IMG/VR virus record: IMGVR_UViG_3300031987_000007
Location: 1,704-65,703 of that record
DNA from: a virus
Direction: 5' to 3' (one strand)
DNA: 64,000 nucleotides
The position numbers were made by a program, and so were the translations under genes. Numbering within the stretch: position 1 is the first letter of the stretch; each line of letters opens with the position of its first letter. Below are positions 9,650 to 47,700 of this stretch, one piece after another. The notes below the pieces were generated by a model. It saw only the letters and a program-made list of their open reading frames with translations, made no database searches and was not told where the DNA came from.

Positions 9650-10753
9650 TCAGTCCGGGTCGAAGTGAATGACTTTCCCGTAAGGGGCGGTAAAGCTGGC
9701 GTTGCCATTGATAATCCAGATGACAGGCACACCGGGGTCTGGGGCGTTGTTATTGAACTCACCATCGGTGAAAACCAACAGTAGGTTGGGCTTGTTTTCC
9801 ATAGCCCAGTCCATGACGGGTTCAATGTTGGTGCCCCCGTACCGGTGGAAGTGCATGTCCTTGAGATCGGCAGCACTGGTCACCGGGTCCACACTGCGAA
9901 TGTGCGAGGTGAACTGAACCAGGGTCAGGGTGTCTGGTTTGTATTTACTCAACAGGCCGTAGCCTTCAGAGACAAACCGGTGATACTCGGTTTCTGTCAC
10001 AGAGCTGGACGCATCAATGGCCATGGCAATGTCCACCAGAGATTCGGTGTACATGCTGGGCAGGTAATGCTTCGGAAAGAATCGACGGTTGGGGCGTCGA
10101 AAGGTGTAGTCGGTTTTAATGGCCTTGGTCATATACCGCTGAAGAATGCGGTGCCAAGGGAGTTTGGGGTTTAACAATCCATTGACGTACACCTGGATTT
10201 CGCCGGGGATACTGCCGGCATCATCTTCGGCCATTTGCGATTGCAACGTGGCGCGTACCAGGATGTCGTCGATCTGGCCTTGGGTCTGTTCCAGTTCATC
10301 AGCATCGTCAGGCGCCCTGAGATCGTCCATGGGGAGATCTTCTTTGGGCTCGTCCGGTAGCAGGTCGTAGACCTCTTCGCTGTTCATGCCGGCGTACTGG
10401 ACGTCATAGAGCCAGTCGGGGGTCATCTTGAACCCACGCTGAACCAGTATGTAATTGATGACGTAGTCGGCGGCGATGTTCCACTTGCGAGGGTCACGAC
10501 CGTTGAGTCGGGTCATGTGGAGTAGAGCCACATGGAGGGTTTCATGGAGAAGAAGGAATACCCGCTGGTCCGCGTCCTGTTGCATGAAGTAGTCAGGGTT
10601 GTAGCGGATCTCCAGCCCATTGGTACAGGCCGTGGGTATGCGTTCATCCCAGATATGCTTCATGGAGAAACAGACCGTGGTGAAGAACGCAGAATCCTTC
10701 GACGCCATGAGAGCGATCTTGGCCGTTTCAAGGGCCTTCTCATGGGCTGACAT
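9650..10753 (-). CDS. Metallopeptidase-like/vWA domain protein (DUF2201; N4 gp25-like)
   Basis: HETLH (HExxH), IDASSS MIDAS, GGT, VFTDG. Confidence 0.88.
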   Translation of the reverse strand: MSAHEKALETAKIALMASKDSAFFTTVCFSMKHIWDERIPTACTNGLEIRYNPDYFMQQDADQRVFLLLHETLHVALLHMTRLNGRDPRKWNIAADYVINYILVQRGFKMTPDWLYDVQYAGMNSEEVYDLLPDEPKEDLPMDDLRAPDDADELEQTQGQIDDILVRATLQSQMAEDDAGSIPGEIQVYVNGLLNPKLPWHRILQRYMTKAIKTDYTFRRPNRRFFPKHYLPSMYTESLVDIAMAIDASSSVTETEYHRFVSEGYGLLSKYKPDTLTLVQFTSHIRSVDPVTSAADLKDMHFHRYGGTNIEPVMDWAMENKPNLLLVFTDGEFNNNAPDPGVPVIWIINGNASFTAPYGKVIHFDPD

Positions 10754-10762
10754 GGTATTTCC

Positions 10763-11827
10763 TTAGAAGAGTGTGTGTCCGTTCAGGGCCACCCAGCGGT
10801 CCACAGACGTTGACTGCAGCAACTTGGGGGTCCGTTTGATGATTTCTCGCATAGCGATGATCTGGAACTCCCGGGGAATACGCTCCACGTACTGCATGAT
10901 CGGGTCGATGTTCTTGCCGTTGGCGTGGTGTCCCAGGGCGCCGGTTAGCATCCAGGAAATGGAAGGCTCATCGGGAACCGGGACTGTGGCTGGGCTTTTG
11001 CAGATTTGCTCAATGCTGGGCAGACGATCCGCGACCTGACAGTACCCGTAGAACTCCCTGGCTACGCCTTCGGAGACGGTGCCGGACAGCAGGATCTTAT
11101 CCAGTGGCTCAAGCATGGCCTTGGGTTTGATCAGGTGACTGGCAAACTCCCAGGTGCGTGGGCACGCAAAGGTCTTGTCGTCATGGTCCGGGTTGAACTT
11201 GAACAGCAGATCCGGTTTCCAGTTGATGTAACTGGTGATCCGGTGATCAATGCCTTCCTCTCGGGCCCATTCCAGCCAGGCCTTTACGTCCACCAACATT
11301 TCCATGTGAATCAGTCGTGATTGGATGGCGGTGGTGAGTTCCTCAACCATGGCGTTGTCAGACACCAGGTTGCCGGCAGCAACTTTGGCCACATTGGGGT
11401 GGAGCTTGAACTGGCCCACTTTGTGATCCAGCAGGATCTTGTAGCAGGCTTTTAGCACAGACTCCGGTGCCAGTGGCAGTTCATCGAAGAACAGGAGCCA
11501 TCCCGCAAATTTGTGCGTGTAGGGTTTACCGTCACCGTCATAGCGGGTTTCTGTTGGAAGTGGGTCACCTTCCGTTGGGTAGGTATCCATCGGCACGTAT
11601 CCGGCTTTTTTCCGGACACTGTCTATGTCGGGATACCCTTTGAGATCGGTGGGGTCACAATCGGCCAGACGCTCATCAATCAGTTTGAGGTTGTAGGCCT
11701 TAGCTATTTGATGGACGACAGCGGATTTACCGCAGCCTGGGCTACCTTCCAGGTACGGAACTAGCTTGGCTTTGAGGCACTGCTCAATCATCTCCCGGGC
11801 GTCTGGGAGCTTCACTTGGATGCCCAT
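10763..11827 (-). CDS. MoxR-like AAA ATPase (N4 gp24-like)
   Basis: GSPGCGKS, LFFDE, AAGN, SRLIH, CPRTWE; paired with vWA gene. Confidence 0.9.
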   Translation of the reverse strand: MGIQVKLPDAREMIEQCLKAKLVPYLEGSPGCGKSAVVHQIAKAYNLKLIDERLADCDPTDLKGYPDIDSVRKKAGYVPMDTYPTEGDPLPTETRYDGDGKPYTHKFAGWLLFFDELPLAPESVLKACYKILLDHKVGQFKLHPNVAKVAAGNLVSDNAMVEELTTAIQSRLIHMEMLVDVKAWLEWAREEGIDHRITSYINWKPDLLFKFNPDHDDKTFACPRTWEFASHLIKPKAMLEPLDKILLSGTVSEGVAREFYGYCQVADRLPSIEQICKSPATVPVPDEPSISWMLTGALGHHANGKNIDPIMQYVERIPREFQIIAMREIIKRTPKLLQSTSVDRWVALNGHTLF

Positions 11828-11849
11828 ATTGAGTGTCCTTTTGGTGTCG

Positions 11850-11879
11850 GATTCACAGAGTGCCCGGAGGGCACCTGTG
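11850..11879 (-). promoter_or_regulatory. GGA-triloop hairpin element upstream of AAA/vWA pair
   Basis: GATTCAC-AGA-GTGCCC-GGA-GGGCAC; intergenic; no U-tract. Confidence 0.5.
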
Positions 11880-11893
11880 TCCGGTAAGGCAGG

Positions 11894-12394
11894 TTATTCG
11901 CTGAGGCGGTCGATCTGCTTCTGAATATCCTCGGGAGACATATTCATCATCTCCTGATCCTTTTTATGGTGCAGGATCTCAGTCAGACGCTGACGCTCGG
12001 CGGCATTAGCAGCACGCTTCTGTGCGGCATTGGTTTGTTCAATGCGGGCATTGATGATGTGCTTCACAACGTCCAGTTTCAGCTCCAGGGCAGACTTAGC
12101 CGGGTTGGTGGTGGGTGCCTCGGCTTCCTTCAAGGTCCGGACGTAGCCCTTGTCGACCTTCAGCCGGGTCTTGCTGTCCAGCTCAGAGACACCCTGATCA
12201 AACGGTGTGGTGGCGTTAGCCCGGCCTTCGTTTTTGGCATAGGCCTGGTACTGTTTGCGCACTGGCTTACCGTCCAGCTTCTTGGCGTACTGGATTACAA
12301 CCAGTCCGTTGCCTTCAACCCACCCTTCCCAATAACCAATGGCATTGCCATGGTTTTGGTACAGGATGCGGTAACATTGTTTGGCTTCGCTCAT
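11894..12394 (-). CDS. Chimeric protein: ligase N-terminal domain copy plus coiled-coil tail
   Basis: 71/90 aa identical to N-terminus of 13434-14552 ligase; unrelated C-terminus ELKLDVVKHII... Confidence 0.85.
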   Translation of the reverse strand: MSEAKQCYRILYQNHGNAIGYWEGWVEGNGLVVIQYAKKLDGKPVRKQYQAYAKNEGRANATTPFDQGVSELDSKTRLKVDKGYVRTLKEAEAPTTNPAKSALELKLDVVKHIINARIEQTNAAQKRAANAAERQRLTEILHHKKDQEMMNMSPEDIQKQIDRLSE

Positions 12395-12609
12395 TGTTGC
12401 TCCTGTTCGTATTCTTGTTCTGACATCACATCGCTACAGCTGACACCAGTTACCCGGTAACCCGGTAGTGCAGAGCAGTCCGCGCCTGTAGCCAGTGAGT
12501 CAATAAAGGGATCTGTACCGTCATCGCTGACAGGGTTTCCTGTCCGCTCAAAAACAACGGTTAGATAGTCTGTGTTTGGGCGGCCGGTGTACGGATGGGT
12601 TTTACTCAT
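12391..12609 (-). CDS. Hypothetical protein
   Basis: ATGA overlaps on both sides. Confidence 0.6.
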   Translation of the reverse strand: MSKTHPYTGRPNTDYLTVVFERTGNPVSDDGTDPFIDSLATGADCSALPGYRVTGVSCSDVMSEQEYEQEQQ

Positions 12610-13424
12610 GCAACGTCCTTATTCAGTGAAAGGGTTTTCTGGAAGGTGGTTTTCTTGACTTGGGGCTTGGGCAACCCACCGTGGATGAAATACTGGTGGA
12701 GCAGTGTGTTGAGTAGCCGAACACCAATGGTGTTTTTCTCGAAGTTGTCTTCAACCACGGCCATGATTTCCAGCTCGGCCTGGTCTCGGTCTACTTCGGG
12801 GAACAGGGCTGCATAGAGATTGAGGAGTTTGGACTTGGTGAGAATGTCCCACATTTGATCCAGGGTGATCTTCTCCAGGCCATACGTGAGACCAACTCGG
12901 CCCAGGAACTCGGTTTTAATACCGAACTCCCGGAGGCGATCAATGTCCAGATCCTCTTCACCATTGAAGGCGCCAGCAAAGATGAACAGGACATTCTCAC
13001 ACTCAACGTCCAGGTACTTGCCGAAGTCGCCATAGACACTGGCAGTCCGGCTTTCGAGTACCTTGAGGAACTCATTCTGAACACCATTGGTGGTCTCATG
13101 AGCCAGATCAGAATTGGTGTTGCCGCTGATGAACAGTTTGTCGAACTCATCCACAAAGCAGATGCAGGGTTGTCCGGCTTTGCGAGTGAGCGGTACCAGG
13201 GCCTTGGAGAGACTGTTGCCGGCTGTGCCTTCTTTGGTCAGGGCAGCCGCGTTGATCTCGAACATATCAATGTCGAGTTCGTCGGCCAGGTGTTCAATGG
13301 TGTGGGTTTTACCGGAGCCAGATGGGCCGGTCAGAATAAAGTGCGGACGGATCTCTGCTTCACTGGTTCGGAAGATTTCGAAGATCCGCCGGATATGATC
13401 CATGGATTCTTTGTTCTGGTTCAT
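12606..13424 (-). CDS. ClpX/HslU-like AAA+ ATPase
   Basis: GPSGSGKT, FVDEFDKL, GVQNEFLKVLE, FIFAGAF, EFLGR. Confidence 0.88.
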   Translation of the reverse strand: MNQNKESMDHIRRIFEIFRTSEAEIRPHFILTGPSGSGKTHTIEHLADELDIDMFEINAAALTKEGTAGNSLSKALVPLTRKAGQPCICFVDEFDKLFISGNTNSDLAHETTNGVQNEFLKVLESRTASVYGDFGKYLDVECENVLFIFAGAFNGEEDLDIDRLREFGIKTEFLGRVGLTYGLEKITLDQMWDILTKSKLLNLYAALFPEVDRDQAELEIMAVVEDNFEKNTIGVRLLNTLLHQYFIHGGLPKPQVKKTTFQKTLSLNKDVA

Positions 13425-13433
13425 GAGAAGGCC

Positions 13434-14552
13434 TTAAACGGTTTCGTGGAAGCGGAGTGCGACGGGCAGTTGGGGAATCCCGTCGACTGAGTAGTAGTGG
13501 AATTTGACGGTCAGGAACTTACCGGGCGTGTTGTGCCGGTCTTCCCACAGTGCGTGCTTCTCCCGCATGTTGCCGGGTGCGGTCACGGTGAAGGTCGGAC
13601 CATCAGGACGGTACTGGCAGGTGTACACCGGAACCCGGAACGTCCCGTTATCCGTGATGTACGGTTTGCCTTCTTCGACACTGAGGATCATGAATTCCTC
13701 GTCCTGAAACTCCTTGAGCTTGAGCAAGGTCCTGGATCGCTTACCGTCCCGGTAGGGCTCGTCACCGAATCGGATCATGGTGCCTTCGTAGCCTTGGGCC
13801 CGGAAATTCTCATGGTGTGCGATGGCTTCGTCTTCAGAGGTCACCAGAATTGTTTTCACCGGAACAATATTCGGGTGCATGTGGAAGTAGGTCGGGTCTA
13901 TACGCATGACCATACCCTCGACCCGTTTCAGGAAAGGTTTTTCACTGATGTGGTCGTAAACGTGGTACTCCAGATCCAGAGTCTCGGGCCGGTGTTTCTT
14001 GATCAGTTTGGAGATTTCCTGGAGGGTTTTTCCGTGAAGGTACAGTTCACCATCCAGGTGAAGCTCTTTAAGGTTCGTGGATTCAATGGCCTCAACGATG
14101 TGAGGCAGATCCAGTACCTTACCTTGGCGGGAGTACAGTACACCGTTCTTATAAAGAGCCCGGTGACCGTCCAGCTTGGGCTGTACGCACGCTGAGTACC
14201 AGTCAATGTCCTTGGGCTTTACCTTCTCCAGTGGCGTGGCCAGCATCGGCTTCAGCAGTCCCAGAGAATTGGTGCTGGGTGCTTTGGCTTCTTCGATGGT
14301 CCGGACGTAGCCTTTGTCGATTTTCAGACGGGCTTTGCTTTCCAGTTCCAAGACACCCTGTTCATAGGGTGTGGTGGCGTTGGCCTTACCTTCGTTCTTG
14401 GCATACGCCTGGTACTGTTTCTCGACGGGCTTGCCATCGAGTTTCTTGGCGTACCGGATAAACACGGTGCCCTTGGGTTCAACCCAACCTTCCCAGTAGC
14501 CAATGGCAGAGCCGTGGTTCTGGTACAAAATGATGTAGCTATCGTTTTCCAT
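13434..14552 (-). CDS. lig: ATP-dependent DNA ligase
   Basis: QPKLDGHR (KxDG), LDGELY, YHVYD, EGTMIR, LLKLK, LTVKF..G+P+ P; start set at MENDSY. Confidence 0.93.
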   Translation of the reverse strand: MENDSYIILYQNHGSAIGYWEGWVEPKGTVFIRYAKKLDGKPVEKQYQAYAKNEGKANATTPYEQGVLELESKARLKIDKGYVRTIEEAKAPSTNSLGLLKPMLATPLEKVKPKDIDWYSACVQPKLDGHRALYKNGVLYSRQGKVLDLPHIVEAIESTNLKELHLDGELYLHGKTLQEISKLIKKHRPETLDLEYHVYDHISEKPFLKRVEGMVMRIDPTYFHMHPNIVPVKTILVTSEDEAIAHHENFRAQGYEGTMIRFGDEPYRDGKRSRTLLKLKEFQDEEFMILSVEEGKPYITDNGTFRVPVYTCQYRPDGPTFTVTAPGNMREKHALWEDRHNTPGKFLTVKFHYYSVDGIPQLPVALRFHETV

Positions 14553-14560
14553 GTGTATCC

Positions 14561-14713
14561 TTATTCGTCTTCTTGGGTTTGTGTGATTGGGGCTACCCAC
14601 CAGTCCATATTGCCGAGTTGATCGTCAGCCCATGTCGTAGCGGTGTCTGTATCTACAAAGGGGCCATAGAACCCAATACCGTCCATCGGGTTGCCGACAA
14701 TGATGATCCACAT
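14561..14713 (-). CDS. Small hypothetical protein (50 aa)
   Basis: MWIIIVGNPMDGIGFYGPF...; tightly packed with neighbours. Confidence 0.55.
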   Translation of the reverse strand: MWIIIVGNPMDGIGFYGPFVDTDTATTWADDQLGNMDWWVAPITQTQEDE

Positions 14714-14714
14714 A

Positions 14715-14933
14715 TCAGGCCTCCATGGACGCGACACGCGCTGCCATTTCAATACCTTCCGGGGTAATAGGCCCCATGTAGAAACCCAGCATGGAACCGG
14801 TTGGGTACAAGGTGACGAAGTGCCCTCGTGGGTCGAACCCTCGGTCCTGCATACGGTTGACCCATTGCTGAGGCAGGGCAGTGTCGAAGGTTTTGTTGGG
14901 GTAACAGGCTTTGGCCAGGTCATCGACGGTCAT
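14715..14933 (-). CDS. Hypothetical protein
   Basis: Tightly packed minus-strand ORF. Confidence 0.55.
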   Translation of the reverse strand: MTVDDLAKACYPNKTFDTALPQQWVNRMQDRGFDPRGHFVTLYPTGSMLGFYMGPITPEGIEMAARVASMEA

Positions 14934-14935
14934 AG

Positions 14936-15175
14936 TTAATCTCCGAGGTCATCCCAGTAAAGGATGCTGACGTTGCCATCGGCAATGCCCAGTAAATGGA
15001 TGGTTTCAATGTCGTCCCGGCCCCAGTCAGCCGCACATTGTTCTTTGGCAGCTTCTTCGATAACTCCGGTAAGACAGTTACCGTTTTTATCGGTAGTGAC
15101 CTCAACGGTGCTGATCCAGATGGTTCCGGTACCACACTCGTCCTGACAAAAGACGGTGCATGTTTTCTTAGGCAT
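14936..15175 (-). CDS. Acidic hypothetical protein
   Basis: Tightly packed ORF with RBS (GGAAG). Confidence 0.6.
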   Translation of the reverse strand: MPKKTCTVFCQDECGTGTIWISTVEVTTDKNGNCLTGVIEEAAKEQCAADWGRDDIETIHLLGIADGNVSILYWDDLGD

Positions 15176-15176
15176 A

Positions 15177-15341
15177 TCAGGCTTCCTTGTTCATCAGGTA
15201 CAGCAGGGTGTTGTGATACATCGCCAGTGCCGCGGTGAGATCGTTGGGGGTTTCGATGGGGAGTTGGGACTTGAGGTGTTCCTCAGCGTCTTCGAGACTG
15301 TCTCTGTGAGGAAACAGAGATTTACTGGATGGTTCAGCCAT
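15177..15341 (-). CDS. Conserved N4-like small protein (54 aa)
   Basis: LFPHRDSLE...LPIETPNDL..A+..YHNTLL motif. Confidence 0.6.
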   Translation of the reverse strand: MAEPSSKSLFPHRDSLEDAEEHLKSQLPIETPNDLTAALAMYHNTLLYLMNKEA

Positions 15342-15846
15342 TGGCGGCCTCGCGTTGTTTGTTCTGTTCTGCCGCGGTCCGGTCCTGCATCTTGATGCGA
15401 ACCAGTCCAATGACGTAGGTGAGTTTGGCCAGCTCGTCTTCTGGTAGCCGGGTGAGGTACAGCTCCACGTTACGGCGAGAGAGTGTCGGCTTATCCATGA
15501 GCTGCTTCAGAGTGGTCGGTGTATGGCCTTTCTCACGCAGCATCCGAACCATGGCATCATCGTCATTGAACTGACGTAGCTGCCGGGTTGACGGTGGGAT
15601 CTGGGTTTTGAGGTCCATCTTTTGCTGACTGCCACGATGGAACAGGCTGTTTTCCTGGGCTGGCTTGGGCGCCGGTGGACGTTCGTTGTAATGGATGACG
15701 CCGAAGTTCAGTAGGACACGCTGAATGGTGCGGCGAGATACGTGAAAGTCTTCTGCCAGGTCGGTTTGACTGACTTTCTCTTGCGTGGTGAGCCGGACTA
15801 TTTCGAGCTGATCGAAGTGGCTCAGGCATTTTACGGTCATGGTCAT
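15334..15846 (-). CDS. HTH domain protein
   Basis: SQTDLAEDFHVSRRTIQRVL helix-turn-helix. Confidence 0.75.
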   Translation of the reverse strand: MTMTVKCLSHFDQLEIVRLTTQEKVSQTDLAEDFHVSRRTIQRVLLNFGVIHYNERPPAPKPAQENSLFHRGSQQKMDLKTQIPPSTRQLRQFNDDDAMVRMLREKGHTPTTLKQLMDKPTLSRRNVELYLTRLPEDELAKLTYVIGLVRIKMQDRTAAEQNKQREAANG

Positions 15847-15861
15847 ACCCTCGGATTTGTT

Positions 15862-16500
15862 TTATAGTGAAATGGATAACAAACCTTGTTGTACTCTGGG
15901 GTCTGTTTCCATTCTTGCTAATTCTTTGATGTGACTTAATTTAGCGTTATTGTATGCAGTAGCCGCTTCATGCGGTGTTTTGAAGTAACCTATTAAGACT
16001 TTCTTACCAAACATCCTGCATTTTGCGACGTAATAGATGTTCTCTTTTATAACGACCCTAGATACCCCTACCGGGTAGTCACCTCTTTTATTATTTCGAG
16101 AGGTTAGTAAGTTATTAAGCTCTTTGGAAATGAATAGACACGTATTAGGGCCGTAGTGTTTTTGTCCTTTCCCAAGTATGTCTTTATCCAGAGCTTTACC
16201 TTCCCAATTTTGTTTGATCATCCACTCCCTAAAGTTGCTAAAAAGTAGCCATGAACTTTCTACAGTAGATCCCAAATAGGTAGGTCTATGAGTCAATGAT
16301 TGCTCACTAAAACAACGTGTTAGAAGAGCAACCCAGGTTCTGTAATACGGGCATTGGTACCGCTTACCGTCCTGGGATACATAATAAACATTGTATGGAG
16401 CATCATTTACTCCTACACCGTGGATTAATTTCCTACGGTTGACTGAAAAACTGGTTACAGGTGTCTCTATAAACATGGCGAACATACCTCTGGTTATCAT
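15862..16500 (-). CDS. Free-standing HNH-type homing endonuclease with AP2-like C-terminus
   Basis: GVGVND, YRTW..LL.RC, W..FSNF..W, LDKDIL, Y.P.TC.FI...LN, YP.GV; visibly AT-rich. Confidence 0.8.
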   Translation of the reverse strand: MITRGMFAMFIETPVTSFSVNRRKLIHGVGVNDAPYNVYYVSQDGKRYQCPYYRTWVALLTRCFSEQSLTHRPTYLGSTVESSWLLFSNFREWMIKQNWEGKALDKDILGKGQKHYGPNTCLFISKELNNLLTSRNNKRGDYPVGVSRVVIKENIYYVAKCRMFGKKVLIGYFKTPHEAATAYNNAKLSHIKELARMETDPRVQQGLLSISL

Positions 16501-37266: not shown

Positions 37267-38769
37267 ATGGCGAATCCAATCACTTGGCGGAATATTGCCG
37301 CCCCGAACTTCTCCGGTGCCTCCGACATGATGGGCCGGGCTCAAGAGTCTTTCACCGGCGCTTTGGATGCCTTGGGAGATACCAAGGATCAGTTTGAACA
37401 GGGCCGTACCAAACGCAACACACAGGACTTCATGGCAGAGCTGTCGAAGTACCGGACGCCGGAAGAATTGGCCGCGGCACAGGAGAGTGGTGCCATTGAC
37501 GCCTTGCGTCAGCAGTACAGTGGTAATGGTTTGATCGACACGGATAAGACCGATGCCGGTGCCATCCGAGACACCCTCACAGGCCTTAGACAGACTCGTG
37601 TGGCTGACCGGGAATACGCGGACAGTGAGACAGAGTTTGGCAACCGTGAGGCCCGTGACAACGCTCAGGCAGCTCTGGCTTCTGGGAACCTGGTTCGTTT
37701 TGACGAGATCGTGGCAAACAACGATTTCCTGAACCAAGGAGAACTGGCTCAGGGCCGTGCCGATGCAGCAGAACGTATTCGTCAACGTGGTATTGCGGAT
37801 GAACAACGTGCCTTCACACAACGCAAGCAGGGACGGTTGGAAGACCAGTGGGGGCGTGACGACGCTTTCCGTGAGTCTATTGCCGCTGCCCGCACGGCGG
37901 GTGCAGAGCGTAGACTGCGGGATAACCGGGCCTCTGAAGGTCTGGTAGCCGCCGCCACAGAGATGGGCTTACCGGTCGTCGATGGGGCTGTGGATTTCTC
38001 CAATGCCACACAAGAGCAACAAGCCCAGCTTCGTGGCATGGTTCAGGAACAGGATCTACTGGATCGAACCAGTGATACCCAGTACGTCAACCAGACCATG
38101 GCCAAGTTGTTGGAAGCCAATCCGGGTATGTCACCGGAACGTGAGCTGAATCTACGGGAAATGCTGGTGAATGAGACCTCACAAGGATCCTCTCTGACAC
38201 CTACGGACCAGGCCAAGATTGTCTCGGCACAGGAAGCTCTCAAAGAAAGTTCCAATATTGCCCAGAACCCTTTTAACACTCCACGGGAATCCTCTGATGT
38301 AGAGGCAGCCGATATCCTGGCACAAGATCCCCGATTCCTGGAATGGAATGCTGGTGAACGTGAAAAAGCCACACGCCAGGTTACCCAGGCAATGTCCGAC
38401 GGTGTGAAGGTGGGTAATAAAACCTTCCCGGTGACCCCGGCCATTGCTCGTATGGCTTTGCAAATCTCAGGTAACGCATGGACTGAGGTTGATGGCACTT
38501 TCAATGATGCAGTCAAGAAGCTAGTTGCCGACAACAACCTGGCCGACAAACTGGAAGAGTACGAAACCTGGAAGAAAGCCGATAAGGAGTTGGTTGCTGC
38601 CGGGAAAGCCGAGTTTGGGTCAGGGCGTAAAGCTCCGGCTCGCCAGTCTCGCTTTCGCAACTTCCTGGATAGTGACCTGTCAGCGCCTACCCAATCCCGC
38701 CCCGATCTACCGAAGCCTAGTTCATCCAATGGTCAACGCAATGACCGTCCCCAACGTGGAGGCCTTTAA
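37267..38769 (+). CDS. Putative internal/ejection protein (gp51 position)
   Basis: MANPITWRNI start; helical; immediately before vRNAP. Confidence 0.72.
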   Translation: MANPITWRNIAAPNFSGASDMMGRAQESFTGALDALGDTKDQFEQGRTKRNTQDFMAELSKYRTPEELAAAQESGAIDALRQQYSGNGLIDTDKTDAGAIRDTLTGLRQTRVADREYADSETEFGNREARDNAQAALASGNLVRFDEIVANNDFLNQGELAQGRADAAERIRQRGIADEQRAFTQRKQGRLEDQWGRDDAFRESIAAARTAGAERRLRDNRASEGLVAAATEMGLPVVDGAVDFSNATQEQQAQLRGMVQEQDLLDRTSDTQYVNQTMAKLLEANPGMSPERELNLREMLVNETSQGSSLTPTDQAKIVSAQEALKESSNIAQNPFNTPRESSDVEAADILAQDPRFLEWNAGEREKATRQVTQAMSDGVKVGNKTFPVTPAIARMALQISGNAWTEVDGTFNDAVKKLVADNNLADKLEEYETWKKADKELVAAGKAEFGSGRKAPARQSRFRNFLDSDLSAPTQSRPDLPKPSSSNGQRNDRPQRGGL

Positions 38770-41700
38770 TGTCCGAGTTTAACGCAAGCCGGTACTTTGA
38801 CAACTTGGCGGCTAAAGAGGCCGATACCACTCTGAGTCCGAACGCCTGGCAGGGTGTCCAGAACCGCCTGACCAAAAAGCAACAAGATGTGGCTGAAACC
38901 AGCCGGCGTAAGGTCGAAGCCATGCGTGAAAACGAACGGACCGTGAACCAACAAGACCAGTGGGACAGTGTCGCCGGTGATCTGGGTACTGGTTCGGACA
39001 TTGTCAGGGAAACCGTTGAAGGTGGTGTCAAGGGTGTTGGCGCTGTCTTTGGGGGTATTGGTGATGGTATTGAAGCGGCGGGTAAGGGTATCGAGGATGT
39101 CCTCGGCGCCGTAGGTCTGGGCGATGAAGTCCAGGCTGCTAATGAGTTTCTGGGTGGATTGGGTGTTAATGCCCCAAGCGAGGGCTTTCAGGGTGTTGAA
39201 AACTGGATGAACCAAGGTGCTGAGAACATAGACCAGTCTCAGGACATGGATTATCGACAGTCCCTGATCGACAGCACGCCAGGTGGTGATGTAACCGATC
39301 CAAGCACATGGACCCTGGGCGAGAACCCGAGTGCCGAGGGGTATGCGGGTCACATTGCCGGCATTATCGGTGGGTTCGCACCACAGGCCGCTACCTTACT
39401 GGCGGGTTCTCCTACACGGGTGGCCACAGCCATGGCGACAGTGGGCGGAGCCCAGGTAGGTGGCAGCCAAGCCAACGAAGCAGAAACCCGGATCAAAGCA
39501 GCGTCTCAGGAAGAGCTTTCTCAGATCGGTATGTATCAGGATCTTATTAAAGAAGGCGTCAGTCACGAAGACGCAGTTGAGCAGACCTCCAAAGCGGCAG
39601 GAGCGGCTGCGTTCATGGCGGCAGCACCTGTTGGTGCTGTTGGCGGTGCTGCCACCAGTTACATTCTGGGTCCACTACAGAAGCAGTTGGCCGGTAACAT
39701 CGCAGGCCGTACTGCCGGGTCGGTCGCATTGAGTGGTACCGAAGAAGCCACACAGGAAGTCAGTGAAACAGTCGCCGCCAGGGCCGGTGTGAATGCAGCC
39801 ATTGGTGATGACCAGGATCTGACCGCGGATACCTTTGCCGATGCCTTATTGGGCGGTGGCTTTGGTGCGGGACTGGGTGTTGCTGGTACCACAGCGTCCG
39901 AGTTGCAGCGTGCCGGACAAAAGAGAGCCGATAAGGAAGACAAGAAAGCCGCGGAGCGTCGGGCGACCAATGGCACCATTTCCGAGCTGATGGCGGCCGG
40001 GGATGTGGATACCTTGGTTGATCCGGAAGCAGGTAAACGCTTCAAGGCAGAAGATGTGGCCCAGGCTGCGGTAGTTGCAAGCACCACTGCGGAACTGGAT
40101 CAGGAAGTACAGAACAATGGTAAGAAAATTCTGCCGAAGATCGGTGAACGTCTGGAGACAGAGCTGGAAAACCTGAAAGCTGATGAAGCTTTACGGTCTC
40201 CGGAGGCGGAAACCAAGAACAAAGGGTTGCTGAAAAAAGCCCAGCAGCTCAAGGCCAGGGAAACAAAAGCGGGCAACAGCGTCGGGGTAGAGCAGGCCAA
40301 CGAGATGATTGGTCAGTTGACTGAAGAACTGAAAGCCACCCGGGACGAAGACAAGGCCGTAAAGAAAGAACGGACAGACCGGATCGAGGCGATGGAGTCG
40401 GCGATTGCCCGGGTCAACGTGGCCCAACGCAACCTGTCAGCCAATGCCTCCAAGTCGGTGGATGTGGATTCACTGATTTCTATAGTGGAAACGCCAGAGA
40501 CGGATGCTGTTGAGAAATCCTCGGCTGCACAGGAAATCATTACCCAGGCCATGGCCAATCCTGATGTGCTGACAGAAGACACAGCACTACGTCTGGCAGA
40601 TGACTCGGCCAACGGATTGACTGAGAAGCAACGTGGTTATCTGCGGTCCTTGTCCCAGAGCAAGGTGGCCGCCAATGAGTTGAAGGACTACACCGATGTG
40701 GTCAAAGACATCTTCTCGGCCAACCCTTCAACCGGTTTTAAAAGCCTTCCTCAATACCGTTCATCTGTTCAACGTGGTCTGACCAATGGCAGCACCGACC
40801 GGGTAGCTGCAGAGCTGGCTCAGCTCGGTCGCTTCTCTGAGTCACACCAGGCCAAGGCCGCACTGGCACGCCAGGCCTTTGACGGTATGGAACCAGGACA
40901 GAAGCAAGCCCAGATCGTCCACAGGGACGGTGGCTGGGAGATGAATACCGGTAAACCCATGAGTGACAAACAGCTCCGTGAGAACGGTGGCCTGTCTATC
41001 TCTACTGGTTCGCAACGTCTTGTCGAGGGGATCGAGCGTGAAGCTCAGGTGATTGAAGCCGCTCGCCAGGAACTGGAAGCGGCTACGGCCGTGACTACAC
41101 CTACAGAACAGCCGGAGGCTGTCTCAGATAATGAGACCGCTGATGTTGATGCTCAAGCCGATCAGAACGCTGACCAGGAGACTGAGAATGAAACAGACCA
41201 GACGCAAAGCGACCAACCTGCAGAAGAAGCTACAGCGCCAGAAACTTCAACGGAAGCGGAACCAGAGACGGGAACAGTCACTTCAGCAGAGCCTGAACGA
41301 GCCAGTGAAGATACTGAAGTTCGGGACAGAGCTGACGACGGTACACGGGATTTCGGAACAACTGTGGAAGGACGCGGTGGAGACACTGGGCGTGAGGAAT
41401 CTGTAGAGCCGGAAGCTCCGGCCAAGTCTGTCCTGTTTGTTGATCAGGGCACCTTCGAGCCGTATATCGGACAAACCACAGTGACTGAGTTCACCAGTAT
41501 GAATCTGGTTCAGGCTTACTTCACCACGAAGAAAGGTCTACCACTGACCGCGAACAAGGACTTCCTGAGTGAAACCTTGGCTACGAACCTGGATAACCCC
41601 GAAGCGTTGCCGGTTGAGTTCAGTGATAGGAATGACACCCGGGACAAGCAACAAGGTCTGGTGCGGTACTTTGCTGAAACCGCGACCAAGTGGAACCAGA

Positions 41701-44700
41701 CCGTTGATGCGTTGTTCCAGGACAAGAAGCGTAAGGACTTCCGCCATGAAAATCTGGTGACCTTCTTTGCTGAAAATGGTCAGTTGGATGAAAACACTAA
41801 GACTGCGATCAGTACCGCTGCGTTCACCTGGGCCGTCGAGAATGGTAATGACCTCTGGTACAACGATGAGGACGCTATCCGTAAGATCCTGGGTCTGGGT
41901 CCGCAGGATGTAGTAACGGACAACGACCGGTTACTGGTGGGTGATGTGGGTACCCGAGATAAGCTGGTGATTCAGGATCTGGGTCAACGAGTAACACAGG
42001 CCTTGGGCCAGCGGATCAGTAAAGACGCGCCGATCAATCACCAGGCCCAGTTGGAAGGGGCCTTTGGTGCCATAGCTTTGGCGGTGTTACAGGAGCAAGG
42101 GTATGTCCAGCGGATAGCCCGTCAAAATGCGGCATTTGGTACCGACCAGGTAAATGAAGAGGGGAAACTCCCCCTTAATTGGTTTGTACGTAGCAACCGG
42201 ATCACAGACAGCGAGGGGAATACCCAGTTCAACCCGATGATTACCGGACTGACCGACCGTGCCAAAGGTACTCAACAGATCGTTCATGACCTGTTCCGGG
42301 TGGAATCCCAGAAGACCGGGCCGGTGGACACAGCCCCGAAAAAAGTACAGGACACCACACGCCGGACGGACCAGAAAGTACCGAAAGAGCAGCGGAAGAT
42401 CCTTGAAGCGGCCATGGCCCAGGAACACTGGCTCAGGGCGGATATGCTCGATGCAGAGACCGGTATTCTGAATAAGCTACCAAGGGCCTTGGTCGATGCG
42501 ATCAGTGGTGTAGAGGCCACTGAGGACCGTCTGATCCATAAAGCAAACCGGTCCAGCCTGGATGCCAAGAATGAGTCGATTGTCCGCGGTAATGATTATA
42601 TGTATGAACTGGCCAACGACCGGTCTGATCGAATGGATCAGCCGTTCTTCTTTGATCGCTCGGTGTGGCGCCAGCAGCGTGTGGGTATCAAATCCAACAC
42701 GTTCAACCCCCAGGCCAGCAAGGTCCATCGTTTTGTAATCAAGATGGTTGGATGGGATTACGATGTGCCAGTAGCCCTGACAGGTGAATCTGGACAACGA
42801 TTCAAACTGGCTGTACTGGAATCCCTGGGTGTGAAGACAGACAAGCAGGGCAACGCCAAGTCACTAGGTCAGTGGGATACCACCGTCAACGATCCGGAAG
42901 TCCGGGCAGCGGTCGAGGCGTTGAAGAAGTTCAGCACCGGGCAGACCACCACACAGGCAGATCAGGATGCAATCCTGGCCGGCGTACAACGTGGCGGGGA
43001 AGACTTCCACAGCTTTGATGGCCTGTGGCACTTGGCTCAGGTAGAACTGGCTGAGACCACCGGCGAAACCAACTTCACAGCCACACTGGTTCGGGAAGGT
43101 GACGGTGTCACCAACGGACCAATGTTTGCACAGCTCCAGACCGGTGCTCTGTTTGGTCGTGACGGTATGGGCGCCAAGGGCGGGTTCTTCACCAAGGCAG
43201 ACGCGGTGCAGGATTATGGGGTATGGGCCCAGGAAGGCAGCAACCACGATTTGTACGAAACCCTGGCCAACGCTGTGGCTGAAAAGATGGAAGGTCAGAG
43301 AAGTGTGGATAGTGGTAGTGAGCCTTTCTACAACTTCCTGGATAAGATCCTTGGTCAGTTCCGGGATGTGGACACAGACGCGGTGACCGGTAAAGGCCGC
43401 AAGCGTGTGAAGACACCCCTGACGGCCATGGTATTTGGTGCCGGCAAAGAGAAGTCGATTGCCAACATGGGGCATGAGTTCGTAGACCTGATCTATGACA
43501 ACATCCAGGACATTCTGGACACCCATGACAATGACCGGGATGCCCGGGCTTCAATTGAAACTTTGTTCAGTGAGCTGAATGGATTTCTCCCGAAGAGCCA
43601 GCAAATCGGTATCCGGCCTACCCGTAAAAACGCAGCGGACCTGGAGTTCTCTGCGGGTCAGCGTGAAACCTTGGTTGGGTTGTTTGAAGGCACGATTGGT
43701 CAGCACATTGATAATGCTCTGGAAGATCAATATGGCGAGTTCTTGTCTCGGCGTAAGCGGTTGAACGATGCCGCTGGCCTGTCTTTCAAACTGTACAAGC
43801 TGGTGTATGACGCGGAGCGTCGAGCCATGATGCAGGAACTGGAAGGCGCCGGGACTATGCCGGTAAATAAAAAAGGCGAACCGCTTCAGGATCTGACCAA
43901 GGCTCAGGAACAGGAGCTGAACAAACGGGTTGAGGCCTTATCGCCACTGGTCCACACCGCCTTGTCAAAAGGTGGTAGCCGGGATGCGGGCCTGAAGATG
44001 GCCAAGATCCAGCGGTCCATGGCACCGGCCGACCAGCCACGTTGGAACGGTAAGGTCACGTTCAAGAAGCATGTACCGCTAAATGCCGATGCCAACGTGG
44101 ACACGTTGCATAAGAGTGTGCGTAAGGATTCTCGTAAGGAGATGGACTTCCGGGCAGTGGTTCAGGAAGAGACCGATCCGGGTGTGGCGCCATTGATCAT
44201 GCTGATTCACTCCATGGACAGTGCCATCATCTCCCGGGTGTACAAGAACGCCAACATCCTCAACGTTCACGATGCGGCCATTGGCTCGCCGGAACAGCTT
44301 GAGACAGTGATGAGGTCGATGAACCAGGAAACCCTGAACGCCCTGATTGAGTATTCGGTACCAGAAGAAGTTATGCAGGCGCTCTATCACACCTTGTTGA
44401 GCTTCAACGAACGGGCCGGTGATTTTGAACAGGATGCCCAGTTCCAGGCCGATTACAAAGCCCTCAAGAAAGAACTGAAGGCTGAGCCCGGTGAAAAAGC
44501 TGGGGAGTTGTTGAAAGCTGCTACGGATATGGACCAGGAAGCCATGCAGTGGGCCCAGGATCTGGAGTATGTGAACCAGTATGGATATGAAGGCAGTGCC
44601 TATCATGTTCAGGATTCCGATAGGCAACGCATTAAAGATCGTCTGAAAACCCCGATGAAAGACCGGATCATTGCCCGGTTGGGTAAGGCCAAGTTGGCCA

Positions 44701-47700
44701 ATCCGGAACAGGTATCTGGTGATCTGGCTCGGTACTTGGAGAAGCAGGAAGCGGCGTTTGTGGCACAGGTCGAGGCCGGCAACAACATGACCGCTTCCCA
44801 GCGTAATGAAGTCCGCGTCTTGAGGTTGGTCAATGAGGTGTTTATCCAGACCGGTGATCTCAACCAGGCACTGGGCCGGGTACTTCCCGGGACCAAAAAC
44901 AAGGCCGAAAGGGGCCGGTTACGTGGTCAACTGATCCAGATATTGGGTAGCAACAATGCCAAGCGCCGGGATGTACGTCATGCTCCAGCCGGCCGTGTTG
45001 TAGACATGATTCAGTCTGCCGAAGCTGGTAGCTGGTTGAGTGAGTCTGTAAAGGCGGATCTGGGCCGAGTCAAAGAAGCATTGCTGGAGAACCCGATGGA
45101 TGTGGCCGGCACTCTCCGGGCATCCACACGTACAGACGCCGATCACGCCGCGGTTATGGCCTACTTGCAGCGGGCCTACAACGGTCGCCGGGAAACCTCC
45201 TGGGGCACGTTGGGCACGCCACGGTCCAATTCCAGTGAGGCACTGGTTCAGGCAATGACGCAGACTCCGGTCATGAAAGCCAAGGATCTGTACCCCCATC
45301 TGAGGAAGGCCTTGCAGGAAATGCCGAAAGGCCCTTCACGCAGCGCCTTGGGACAGGTGTTGCTAGAGCTGCGGGACCGAATTGATCCAGAGCTTGAGGT
45401 TCGTTATATCACTCAGGATACCCCGGCTAGCTTGGCGCCCGAGAGTGTCACTGGTGCCCGAGGGTTCTTCCACCAGGGTGAGGGTGGTCGGTACATTGCC
45501 GTCAAGGGTCCGGACTTTGTAGAGTCGAACCTGACGCCTGAACTACTGGCTCACGAATTGATCCATTCGGTGGTGTCAGCGGATATCAAGAAAGAGCTGG
45601 CTGCCCAGAAGCGGAACAAGAACCACAAAAGCAACCTGACACCCCTGGTCAATGACCTGGAGCGGGTGCGTCAGAAAGCGGAAGAGTTGGTGGTGAATGA
45701 CACCGCACTGCAAGCCAAGTATGGCAATGCCGTGAAAGATGTCGATGAAATGGTGGCCTGGGGTATGTCAAACGCTGGCTTCCAGCAAGAAGTCTTGAGC
45801 CAGTTCGAGGTTGAGACCCAGACCCAGAACAACCGGTTTGTTACCGGGATGCAGTCGTTCATTAAGACTCTGGCCAATATCCTGTTCCGTAAGTCGGCAA
45901 CCCCGGCCCAGCAGAACGGCCTGAACGTGGTAATCAATAACGCATCTGGCTTGTTTGCAGCCGTAGCAGATTCCAAAGCAACCACCGTCGAAGTGACTGC
46001 CAAGCAGGAAACACCGGATCCGTTCGGGGAAGTGGACAAGTACACCACGGAAGATATTTACAATGCTTTGGACGGTGAGCCCGATGGACGGCTGCAGTCA
46101 GTTATGGATCAAGTTATCACCCATCTGCACGGTCCTTATGGGGGCATCAAGGCTTTGGTAGACCGTCAGACCGGGAACACGGCTGAGGATGTGTACCTCA
46201 ATGCGATGATCACCGGGGAGTTACCGTTCGCGTCTCGGGCCATTGCCTCTGGACTGGTGCTGTCTGACAAGCAGGCGTTTGTACTGGAACAGTCAGAAGT
46301 TACGATGCAGACCCTGATGGATGGTAAGAGCCTGGCGTCTAAGGACATGGTTCGTCTGTTCCGGAAGACCCGTAGCGAGCTGTCTGCCAAGGACTTTCAC
46401 GATGGTGATTGGGCGCTTGCAACGGATACGGAAAAGGCCAAGGCGCATCAGACCTACGACTTCATCTTCAAGCTGAATGCCACTGATACTGAATCCCGAT
46501 CGGACCACTTGAGCCGGTTTGCGGCCCTGGCACTGACTTACCCGCCGTTGTACCAGAAAATGAACTTCCCGGTAACACCGGAGCAAGGGTCATCCAGTGC
46601 CAAGATGGGTGAGCGTATCCAATCCTGGTTTAATGACCAGGTGCAGCGTTTTGCTAATGAAATCAACAAGACATACAGCGGCCAGGAAGGTCGTGCCCGT
46701 ATGGATGCGTTGGTGAAACGTCTGGTACAGATTGAGGCCCGTAAAAAGGCGAAGATCGCCAGTGGCAAAGTGTCACTACTGGATCAGATTGAAGAGGCCA
46801 ATAACAACGCAGCCGGTAGTGTCCGGTCTCGTGTGGCCAACCTGGCACGGTCTGAGCGGTTTTCCAACTCAGACAGTCCGATTGTACGTGCTGCTAGTAA
46901 AACAACAGCACTGGGCGCAGAGAACCGGCTGGGTGAGTTGTTGAACACCATGGAAGACTTCCGTAACAGTCGGTTCCCCGGGCGTCAGGGACTGGCGGCT
47001 TCTGCGATGTCCGAAGTACGGGGTACCACGGAATCCAACAAAGTGTTCCATGAGCTACTCAACGAAGCCGGCAAGAATGAGCGAGAGCGTAAGCAGCGGA
47101 TTGAAAGTGTGAAGCAACAAATCCTCGAGAGTTTTGGTGAGGATGGGGAATCACTGACTGATACCCAACGCTCGGACCTGACTCGGGTACTGTTGAAAAC
47201 GGATCTGTCAGCGTTGCTGGCTGACGACCGCTTTACCGTGAAGCAGTTGACCAATTTGGTAGACAACACACAGAATCTGGACACAACCATTGCTGAGGCC
47301 GAAGGGGATCTAGCGGCACTGGGCCCGAATGCGGCGTATTACAAAAATGCAGCCGAGGCCTTGGGGCATTTCATGGCCACCGGTGAAGTGCTGAGCCCAA
47401 ACCTGATGCTGAATGTTCACAACATTGCTAATAAGGTCGGTATGTCTGACGCCAACACTGTGGCGCCACAGGACGTAGAGGCGGCTAAGGCAATTCTCGA
47501 TCCGTTGGTAAGCCTGTACGCCTTGCGTGCCACCGGACAGACCCAGCAGCAAACAGTTAAACGTTTGATGCAGCATCAACAGGAGCGTGGTCAACAAAGT
47601 GGTGTGTTCTTTATGCTGAAGCTGCATCAATCCATGAAGGACGAGGCCAAGCGGGAGCTGTTTGATAATGACCCGGCGCTATTCACCAAGGGGTACATCA

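Follow-up and report, generated by a model that had tools for sequence, protein, structure and literature searches.

The closest described counterparts of the gene analyzed here are the phage ATP-dependent DNA ligases (phrog_114, PF01068) with an N-terminal extension, the nearest of them being an uncultured enzyme, hereafter ligase B (P0152/P0153). An N-terminal domain is also present in the DNA ligase of ASFV, where it is required for DNA binding and ligation; in isolation, its DNA binding is far weaker than that of the complete enzyme, and its fold was called completely novel in the original paper (PMC6344480). Composite genes built by recombination from unrelated families are widespread in viruses according to the survey by Jachiet et al. 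(2014, PMC4202312), and middle promoters of a hairpin type have been described for LUZ7 (PMC9163698). The literature searched contained no description of the fusion reported below, and no work that takes the ligases of N4-like phages as its subject.

Genome setting and the chimeric reading frame

The window, that is, the whole stretch of 64 kb that was analyzed, belongs to a virus record of 73.6 kb (98% complete). By its gene content, the source genome is assigned to the N4-like phages (Schitoviridae), since it carries an ORF of 3580 aa (38769–49511), a putative giant virion RNA polymerase by size and position, and a subunit of the two-subunit RNA polymerase II (RNAP2) with 49% identity to its LUZ7 counterpart. 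A putative homing-endonuclease gene (212 aa, 15862–16500) lies between an HTH gene and RNAP2. The minus-strand genes follow in the order ligase A, AAA ATPase (phrog_5534), 72-aa ORF, chimeric ORF, ATPase (phrog_1297), vWA/metallopeptidase, helicase and polymerase. Ligase A (13434..14552) is an intact ATP-dependent DNA ligase of 372 aa, with an adenylation domain detected by Pfam scan (PF01068, E = 4e-11); it most likely starts at the ATG at 14552, which corrects the earlier start, and its segment homologous to the chimeric ORF occupies 14268–14537. The AAA gene, which is mosaic, occupies 12606..13424, and the ATPase gene at 10763..11827 opens the ATPase–vWA/metallopeptidase–helicase–polymerase block. 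The vWA/metallopeptidase gene (9650–10753) contains PF13203 and PF09967 and was assigned to phrog_1314; judging by these domains, the PHROGs label "HNH endonuclease" looks wrong for it. The 72-aa ORF (12391..12609, minus strand), located between the AAA gene and the ligase B piece, is bounded by ATGAG, is missing in ligase-B phages, has a GC3 of 0.47 vs 0.64–0.69 around it and is 99% conserved in loci L095 and L097; it had no match among phages, Pfam or PHROGs. Neither a sigma-70 promoter nor a convincing terminator was found within 11500–15500.

The chimeric ORF (11894..12394, minus strand, 166 aa) begins with an ATG that overlaps the stop codon of the 72-aa ORF (ATGA) and is preceded by a GGAG ribosome site; because of this site and the overlapping start, its product is probably translated. 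Codons 1–68 (12191..12394) correspond to the 5′ end of ligase B at ~99% nucleotide identity, codons 69–94 (12113..12190) are similar to ligase B but more diverged, the junction (12104..12114) reads ACC AAC (Thr-Asn) in frame, and the tail (11894..12103) corresponds to the C-terminal helical half of phrog_2018 (profile positions ~61–131). The earlier note had described this gene as a chimera of a ligase N-terminus and an unrelated tail, and that description was borne out, with ligase B supplying the head and phrog_2018 the tail. The observations behind it were also reproduced: residues 8–97 are identical to ligase A, located 2164 nt upstream, at 71 of 90 positions; the identity ends after AP(T/S)TN, with 3 of 69 residues identical past that point; and the nucleotide differences from ligase A are in excess at third codon positions (12/9/35 by codon position). 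The corresponding 269-nt repeat (79% identity) is the sole long repeat of the window. The adenylation domain with its KxDG motif (PF01068) was absent from the chimera in the Pfam search, the ligase sequence being left at residue 97, before the motif, and the OB domain is likewise absent from the 166-aa product; by its domain content, the chimera cannot be a ligase.

A contig of 2133 nt from another study and year (X2) covers positions 11537–13669 with zero differences, and since it spans the junction unchanged, an artefact confined to one assembly is excluded for this site. It should be noted that no piece of X2 that was compared differs from the window, so that X2 adds no second genotype.

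Origin of the two halves and of the junction

In the metagenome locus L096, an intact ligase B of 369 aa directly follows the AAA gene, and its first 291 nt are 93.5% identical to positions 12394–12104, from the same ATG through to the junction; for the variant in L138, the identity was 94.5%. The head is therefore 93–95% identical to ligase B at the nucleotide level vs 79% to ligase A, and the two ligases share 72% with each other. The identical intact ligase B protein was present on 12 contigs, and one contig of run X3 carried the end of the AAA gene, a chimera-type domain and a ligase core in succession. In the nucleotide tree, the clade of the chimera and ligase B was supported at 100/99, and a clade of the chimera and ligase A was rejected (p-AU = 1.4e-5). 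From these comparisons, the head is identified as the 5′ end of another phage's ligase, namely, ligase B. The earlier note had instead proposed a duplication of the neighboring ligase within the genome, which fails both on this tree and on the 93–99% identity of the head to the foreign ligase. Several short domain matches, together with P0001, were considered as further cases and set aside, as they look like frameshifted or cut ligases.

The similarity to ligase B changes within the head. Codons 1–68 differ from L138 by 2 of 204 nt, and a break was found near codon 68, with 1 difference in 174 nt before it and 14 in 87 nt after it (Fisher p = 1.4e-6). In codons 69–94, 12 codons differ from L138, 10 of them silently; when polarized by eye, ~3–5 silent and 2 replacement changes fell on the chimera branch, a number too small to draw on, at dates that cannot be placed relative to the fusion. 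This segment probably represents a third ligase allele; no intact ligase was found that fits it better than ligase B.

The dN/dS value between the chimera and ligase A was 0.15 (bootstrap 0.06–0.32, dS = 0.88), and because the head derives from ligase B, it measures two working ligases of different phages. The third-position excess had been read in the earlier note as selection on both copies; this reading was not sustained, as pairs of intact ligases of the same clade gave the same ratio (0.06–0.25), and the value says nothing about selection upon the fusion itself. The junction was found in one genotype only, so that dN/dS among fusion copies is incomputable. The possible presence of the fusion in related phages, also raised earlier, found no confirmation: no second full-length copy was found among phage genomes, viral and metagenome contigs, bacterial genomes, 5.8 billion proteins and 1.84 billion representatives, in searches that may have left out records very close to the window, and the chimera shares its protein cluster with a single further protein, the truncated P0002 of L095.

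The presence of two ligases in this lineage would be explained by the AAA gene. Two gene orders occur in relatives: L139, overall the nearest of them, has ligase–AAA–ATPase, and L129–L138 have AAA–ligase B–ATPase. In the window, the 5′ 700 nt of the AAA gene follow L139 and the last 100 nt follow the ligase-B phages (98%), with ratios of informative sites of 147:31 ahead of the switch and 1:18 beyond it; the crossover lies between 12709 and 12701, the split point having been chosen from the data. Thus, the AAA gene is a mosaic of two parental types, and a crossover inside it yields the order ligase A–AAA–ligase B, as seen here.

Residues 97–163 of the chimera matched positions 65–131 of the 132 positions of phrog_2018 (E = 4.6e-15), and the sole phrog_2018 match of the genome covered profile positions 61–131 (E = 2.3e-26). 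As this match starts at position 61, the N-terminal head of the family (positions 1–57) has no match in this genome, and nine of the ten near-invariant columns of phrog_2018 fall in the lost half. The tail had been likened to a widespread phage coiled-coil protein: the widespread protein is indeed phrog_2018, whereas the coiled coil was not upheld, since an intact homologue was modeled with a single helix of 53 residues plus a short one across the tail region. A fold search with the intact homologue returned only generic helical matches (e.g., ribosomal uL29-like chains, Z < 8). In loci L017, L025, L032, L040, L105, L106, L109, L110 and L112–L119, phrog_2018 follows phrog_1735, for which no match was found in the 98%-complete genome studied here, although the same query matches other loci. 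The phrog_1735 family corresponds to DUF8224 (~670 aa, HDCSCCR motif); it was recorded in 538 phage records and phrog_2018 in 405, the two being adjacent in most loci checked (for example, L105:3981–6396, L106:2987–5405 and L110:2001–4417). By these gene neighborhoods, the pair is a widespread two-gene module that lacks a known function; complex prediction for the L110 pair gave a score of 0.00, which was given no weight in either direction. Another protein, P0008 (208 aa), joins a head resembling a putative sugar-kinase N-terminus to phrog_2018 from position 35 and may be an artefact.

The head domain and intact phrog_2018 were folded separately, and a joint alignment of both halves collapsed; the ESM Atlas model of the chimera had a pTM of 0.51. 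The head domain was modeled with a pLDDT of 91 as an antiparallel sheet packed on a long helix. The WGR-like character suggested for it in the earlier note agrees with its structural matches to WGR proteins and the ASFV ligase, which constitute the top six matches (VIA; Z = 6.6–9.0, the next being 5.0), and the top Foldseek match was 2ra8 (E = 0.012). At the sequence level, Pfam WGR (PF05406) had no match in the chimera and weak matches in three of 42 homologues (best E = 0.0037). According to the models and by analogy with ASFV, the chimera may fold a WGR-like domain with weak DNA binding, and its product is likely to be a folded protein that binds DNA weakly and carries an orphaned tail. Apart from the chimera, many phage DNA ligases have an N-terminal domain without annotation (14268–14552 in the window, with homologues; alignment A3) that is WGR-like and matches the domain of the ASFV ligase (Z = 7.7); its invariant residues concentrate in N55–Q67. 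In the ESM Atlas, viral clusters of 99, 111 and 135 aa (50–96 members) have the fold of this ligase domain; these may be stand-alone domains or ligase fragments.

At the end of their N-terminal domain, ligases have Ser-Thr-Asn codons, and codon 95 is ACC in the chimera vs AGC in five of the six ligases compared. At the equivalent point, intact phrog_2018 genes of the N4-like loci L110 and L025 carry in-frame ACC AAC CCG codons (Thr-Asn-Pro); the junction of the chimera reads Pro-Thr-Thr-Asn-Pro. Since both parent types have Thr-Asn codons in frame, an in-frame fusion can arise without selection. The sequences suggest that up to 11 nt were shared at the junction, an estimate based on more distant phrog_2018 homologues and on one alignment end in the X5 contig. 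That contig matches 11550–12114 from the tail side at ~91%, and as the match stops short of the ligase domain, the fusion is younger than the split from the X5 relative; X5 is an RNA run with contigs from related phages only and so has no bearing on expression. The direct tail donor was not recovered, the searches being empty or returning distant matches only. Both breakpoints coincide with domain boundaries, leaving a whole WGR-like domain and a whole helical tail.

Related loci and the competing explanations

Both parent genes also decay separately in relatives. In L095:750–986, a deletion at a direct repeat of 12 nt has removed ligase B from codon 66 through the stop codon but spared the downstream hairpin, and the remnant carries R46C and Q50P; L095 is a single short contig, and this deletion could be an artefact. 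L097 ends at chimera codon 68. The AAA gene is broken in L095:1–540, L097:1–670 and L004:5306–5491, where only 3′ pieces are left; upstream, L095 and L097 have a further small gene. Several N4-like loci have the AAA gene followed by the ATPase gene, with no ligase between them. In L111, a 90-aa gene lies between the ligase and the ATPase; it ends in a phrog_2018 tail and begins with 23 residues that weakly resemble the start of phrog_1735 (E = 0.086). In-frame joins of phrog_1735 pieces to the phrog_2018 tail were found in L111:4001–4273 (P0010), L140:656–970 (P0076) and L141:36–479 (P0020); P0020 and P0076 are the clearer ones, both on short contigs. Other foreign-head fusions to this tail also join near positions 55–70, a clustering that was discounted as evidence in view of search bias and short contigs.

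A GC-rich triloop hairpin (11854..11879, z = −4.5) lies downstream of the chimera and upstream of the ATPase gene, and L130, L095 and L111 have similar, partly weaker hairpins in the corresponding position. By its resemblance to the LUZ7 hairpins, it is a probable middle promoter of the ATPase block. The need to keep it would make deletions end upstream, so that 3′ ends survive.

An origin of the chimera by recombination is considered highly probable. We infer the following direction and order of events. A phage in which ligase A preceded AAA would have recombined within the AAA gene with an AAA–ligase B relative, which gave two ligases. Microhomology-guided recombination or deletion would then have truncated the spare ligase B, so that the Thr-Asn codons at the end of its N-terminal domain were joined to those located midway in phrog_2018; the loss (~3 kb) would have comprised the catalytic core, the head of phrog_2018 and also phrog_1735, provided that the donor carried it, and the upstream stop/start overlap and the downstream hairpin would have been retained. 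The product most likely does nothing selected for, and it would be tolerated because ligase A is intact. The gene as a two-step recombination scar with no selected function is the preferred reading, at a probability of roughly 0.7. The separate decay of both parent genes in relatives, the single genotype and the loss of conserved columns were counted for it; the clean domain boundaries, the intact ORF with a good ribosome site and the mostly silent changes of codons 69–94, which may be older or younger than the fusion, were counted against it.

The same clean boundaries, silent changes and translation signals speak for a co-opted fusion, in which the tail oligomerizes or docks on ligase A or on the adjacent AAA/vWA proteins and retargets the WGR-like domain to DNA or nicks. 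The fold matches to PARP WGR domains and to the DNA-binding domain of the ASFV ligase also agree with it, as do, as a lead only, the ESM Atlas viral clusters of 99–135 aa, which may be stand-alone. Co-option is nevertheless unlikely: X2 and the protein cluster with its truncated P0002 leave one genotype, the ASFV domain on its own is a much weaker DNA binder than the full ligase (PMC6344480), L095 cuts the same domain inside the main helix region, and phrog_2018 also occurs in phage groups such as Salmonella, Bacillus and Caulobacter phages, beside phrog_1735 where checked. The bolder form of this idea, a newborn protein whose nick-binding WGR-like domain and docking tail target breaks for ligase A or the AAA/vWA proteins, or shield them from host sensing, is improbable as well. 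For the decoy, recruiter and retargeting roles proposed in the earlier note, no support was obtained, given one genotype and two parents that decay in relatives.

It is distinctly doubtful that the tail is the useful part, with the phrog_2018 helices keeping a function ahead of the ATPase block and a start codon being all that the ligase piece supplies. L111 keeps the same 67 residues in frame and at the same position under a different head (54% identity), and several other foreign-head fusions retain the whole tail; however, a tail-based search could find only in-frame scars that keep the tail, two of the examples are on short contigs (562 and 964 nt), the gene is absent altogether in the close relatives L001, L003, L004, L129 and L139, and the need to retain the hairpin would explain the survival of 3′ ends. 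A duplication of the ligase A domain within the genome, with both copies under long-term selection and the chimera acting as a decoy for ligase A, is very improbable: the 79% identity and the dN/dS of 0.15 that would favor it are matched by any two intact ligases in the ratio and exceeded by ligase B in the identity, and the tree rejects the required clade. An assembly chimera of co-occurring phages has a similarly slight chance. Phages with intact ligase B do share samples with near-identical pieces of this locus, but two studies have contigs that contain the junction far from their ends, namely, X1 (possibly the source of the window) and X2. Assemblers use words longer than the 6–11 nt stretch shared at the junction, which was also counted against such an artefact; the earlier note had named it as grounds for dismissing the fusion, and the unchanged X2 junction removes those grounds.

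The reading as a two-step scar makes this locus an unusually well-resolved birth of a phage composite gene, with parents, gene orders and crossovers visible in relatives, and of modest importance. It also carries a caution: a low dN/dS between apparent duplicates can be inherited from the working alleles of two phages. The side results, namely, the WGR-like N-terminal domain of ligases and the phrog_1735/phrog_2018 module, are maybe more useful. If the fusion were selected, it would represent a traceable birth of a DNA-targeting protein from two broken genes.

Comparison with known systems

The first 97 residues of the chimera are 94% identical to ligase B, with the same start codon and the same place after the AAA gene, whereas the adenylation domain, KxDG motif and OB domain of ligase B are lacking. 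The head shares its sheet-plus-helix fold with the N-terminal domain of ASFV DNA ligase (PDB 6imk; Z = 7.7, rmsd 2.9, 83 aligned) and with the WGR domains of 2ra8, PARP1 (7s68) and PARP3 (2eoc) (Z = 9.0 (2.2, 70) and 7.2 (2.6, 75)); it differs from them in its sequence (9–21% identity) and in being detached from any catalytic core. The C-terminal helices are 45–54% identical to members of phrog_2018, which in the N4-like loci L032, L105, L110 and L025 occupies the same region, upstream of the phrog_1297 ATPase; unlike these members, the chimera is without the N-terminal head that holds nine of the ten conserved positions, and its genome is without phrog_1735.

The chimera is a real, well-resolved scar, and composite genes as such are already known and common in virus evolution (PMC4202312). 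It resembles those composite genes, and phage mosaicism in general, in being built from segments of unrelated families, and it differs from them in that environmental relatives here reveal both parent families, both gene orders and the points of crossover.
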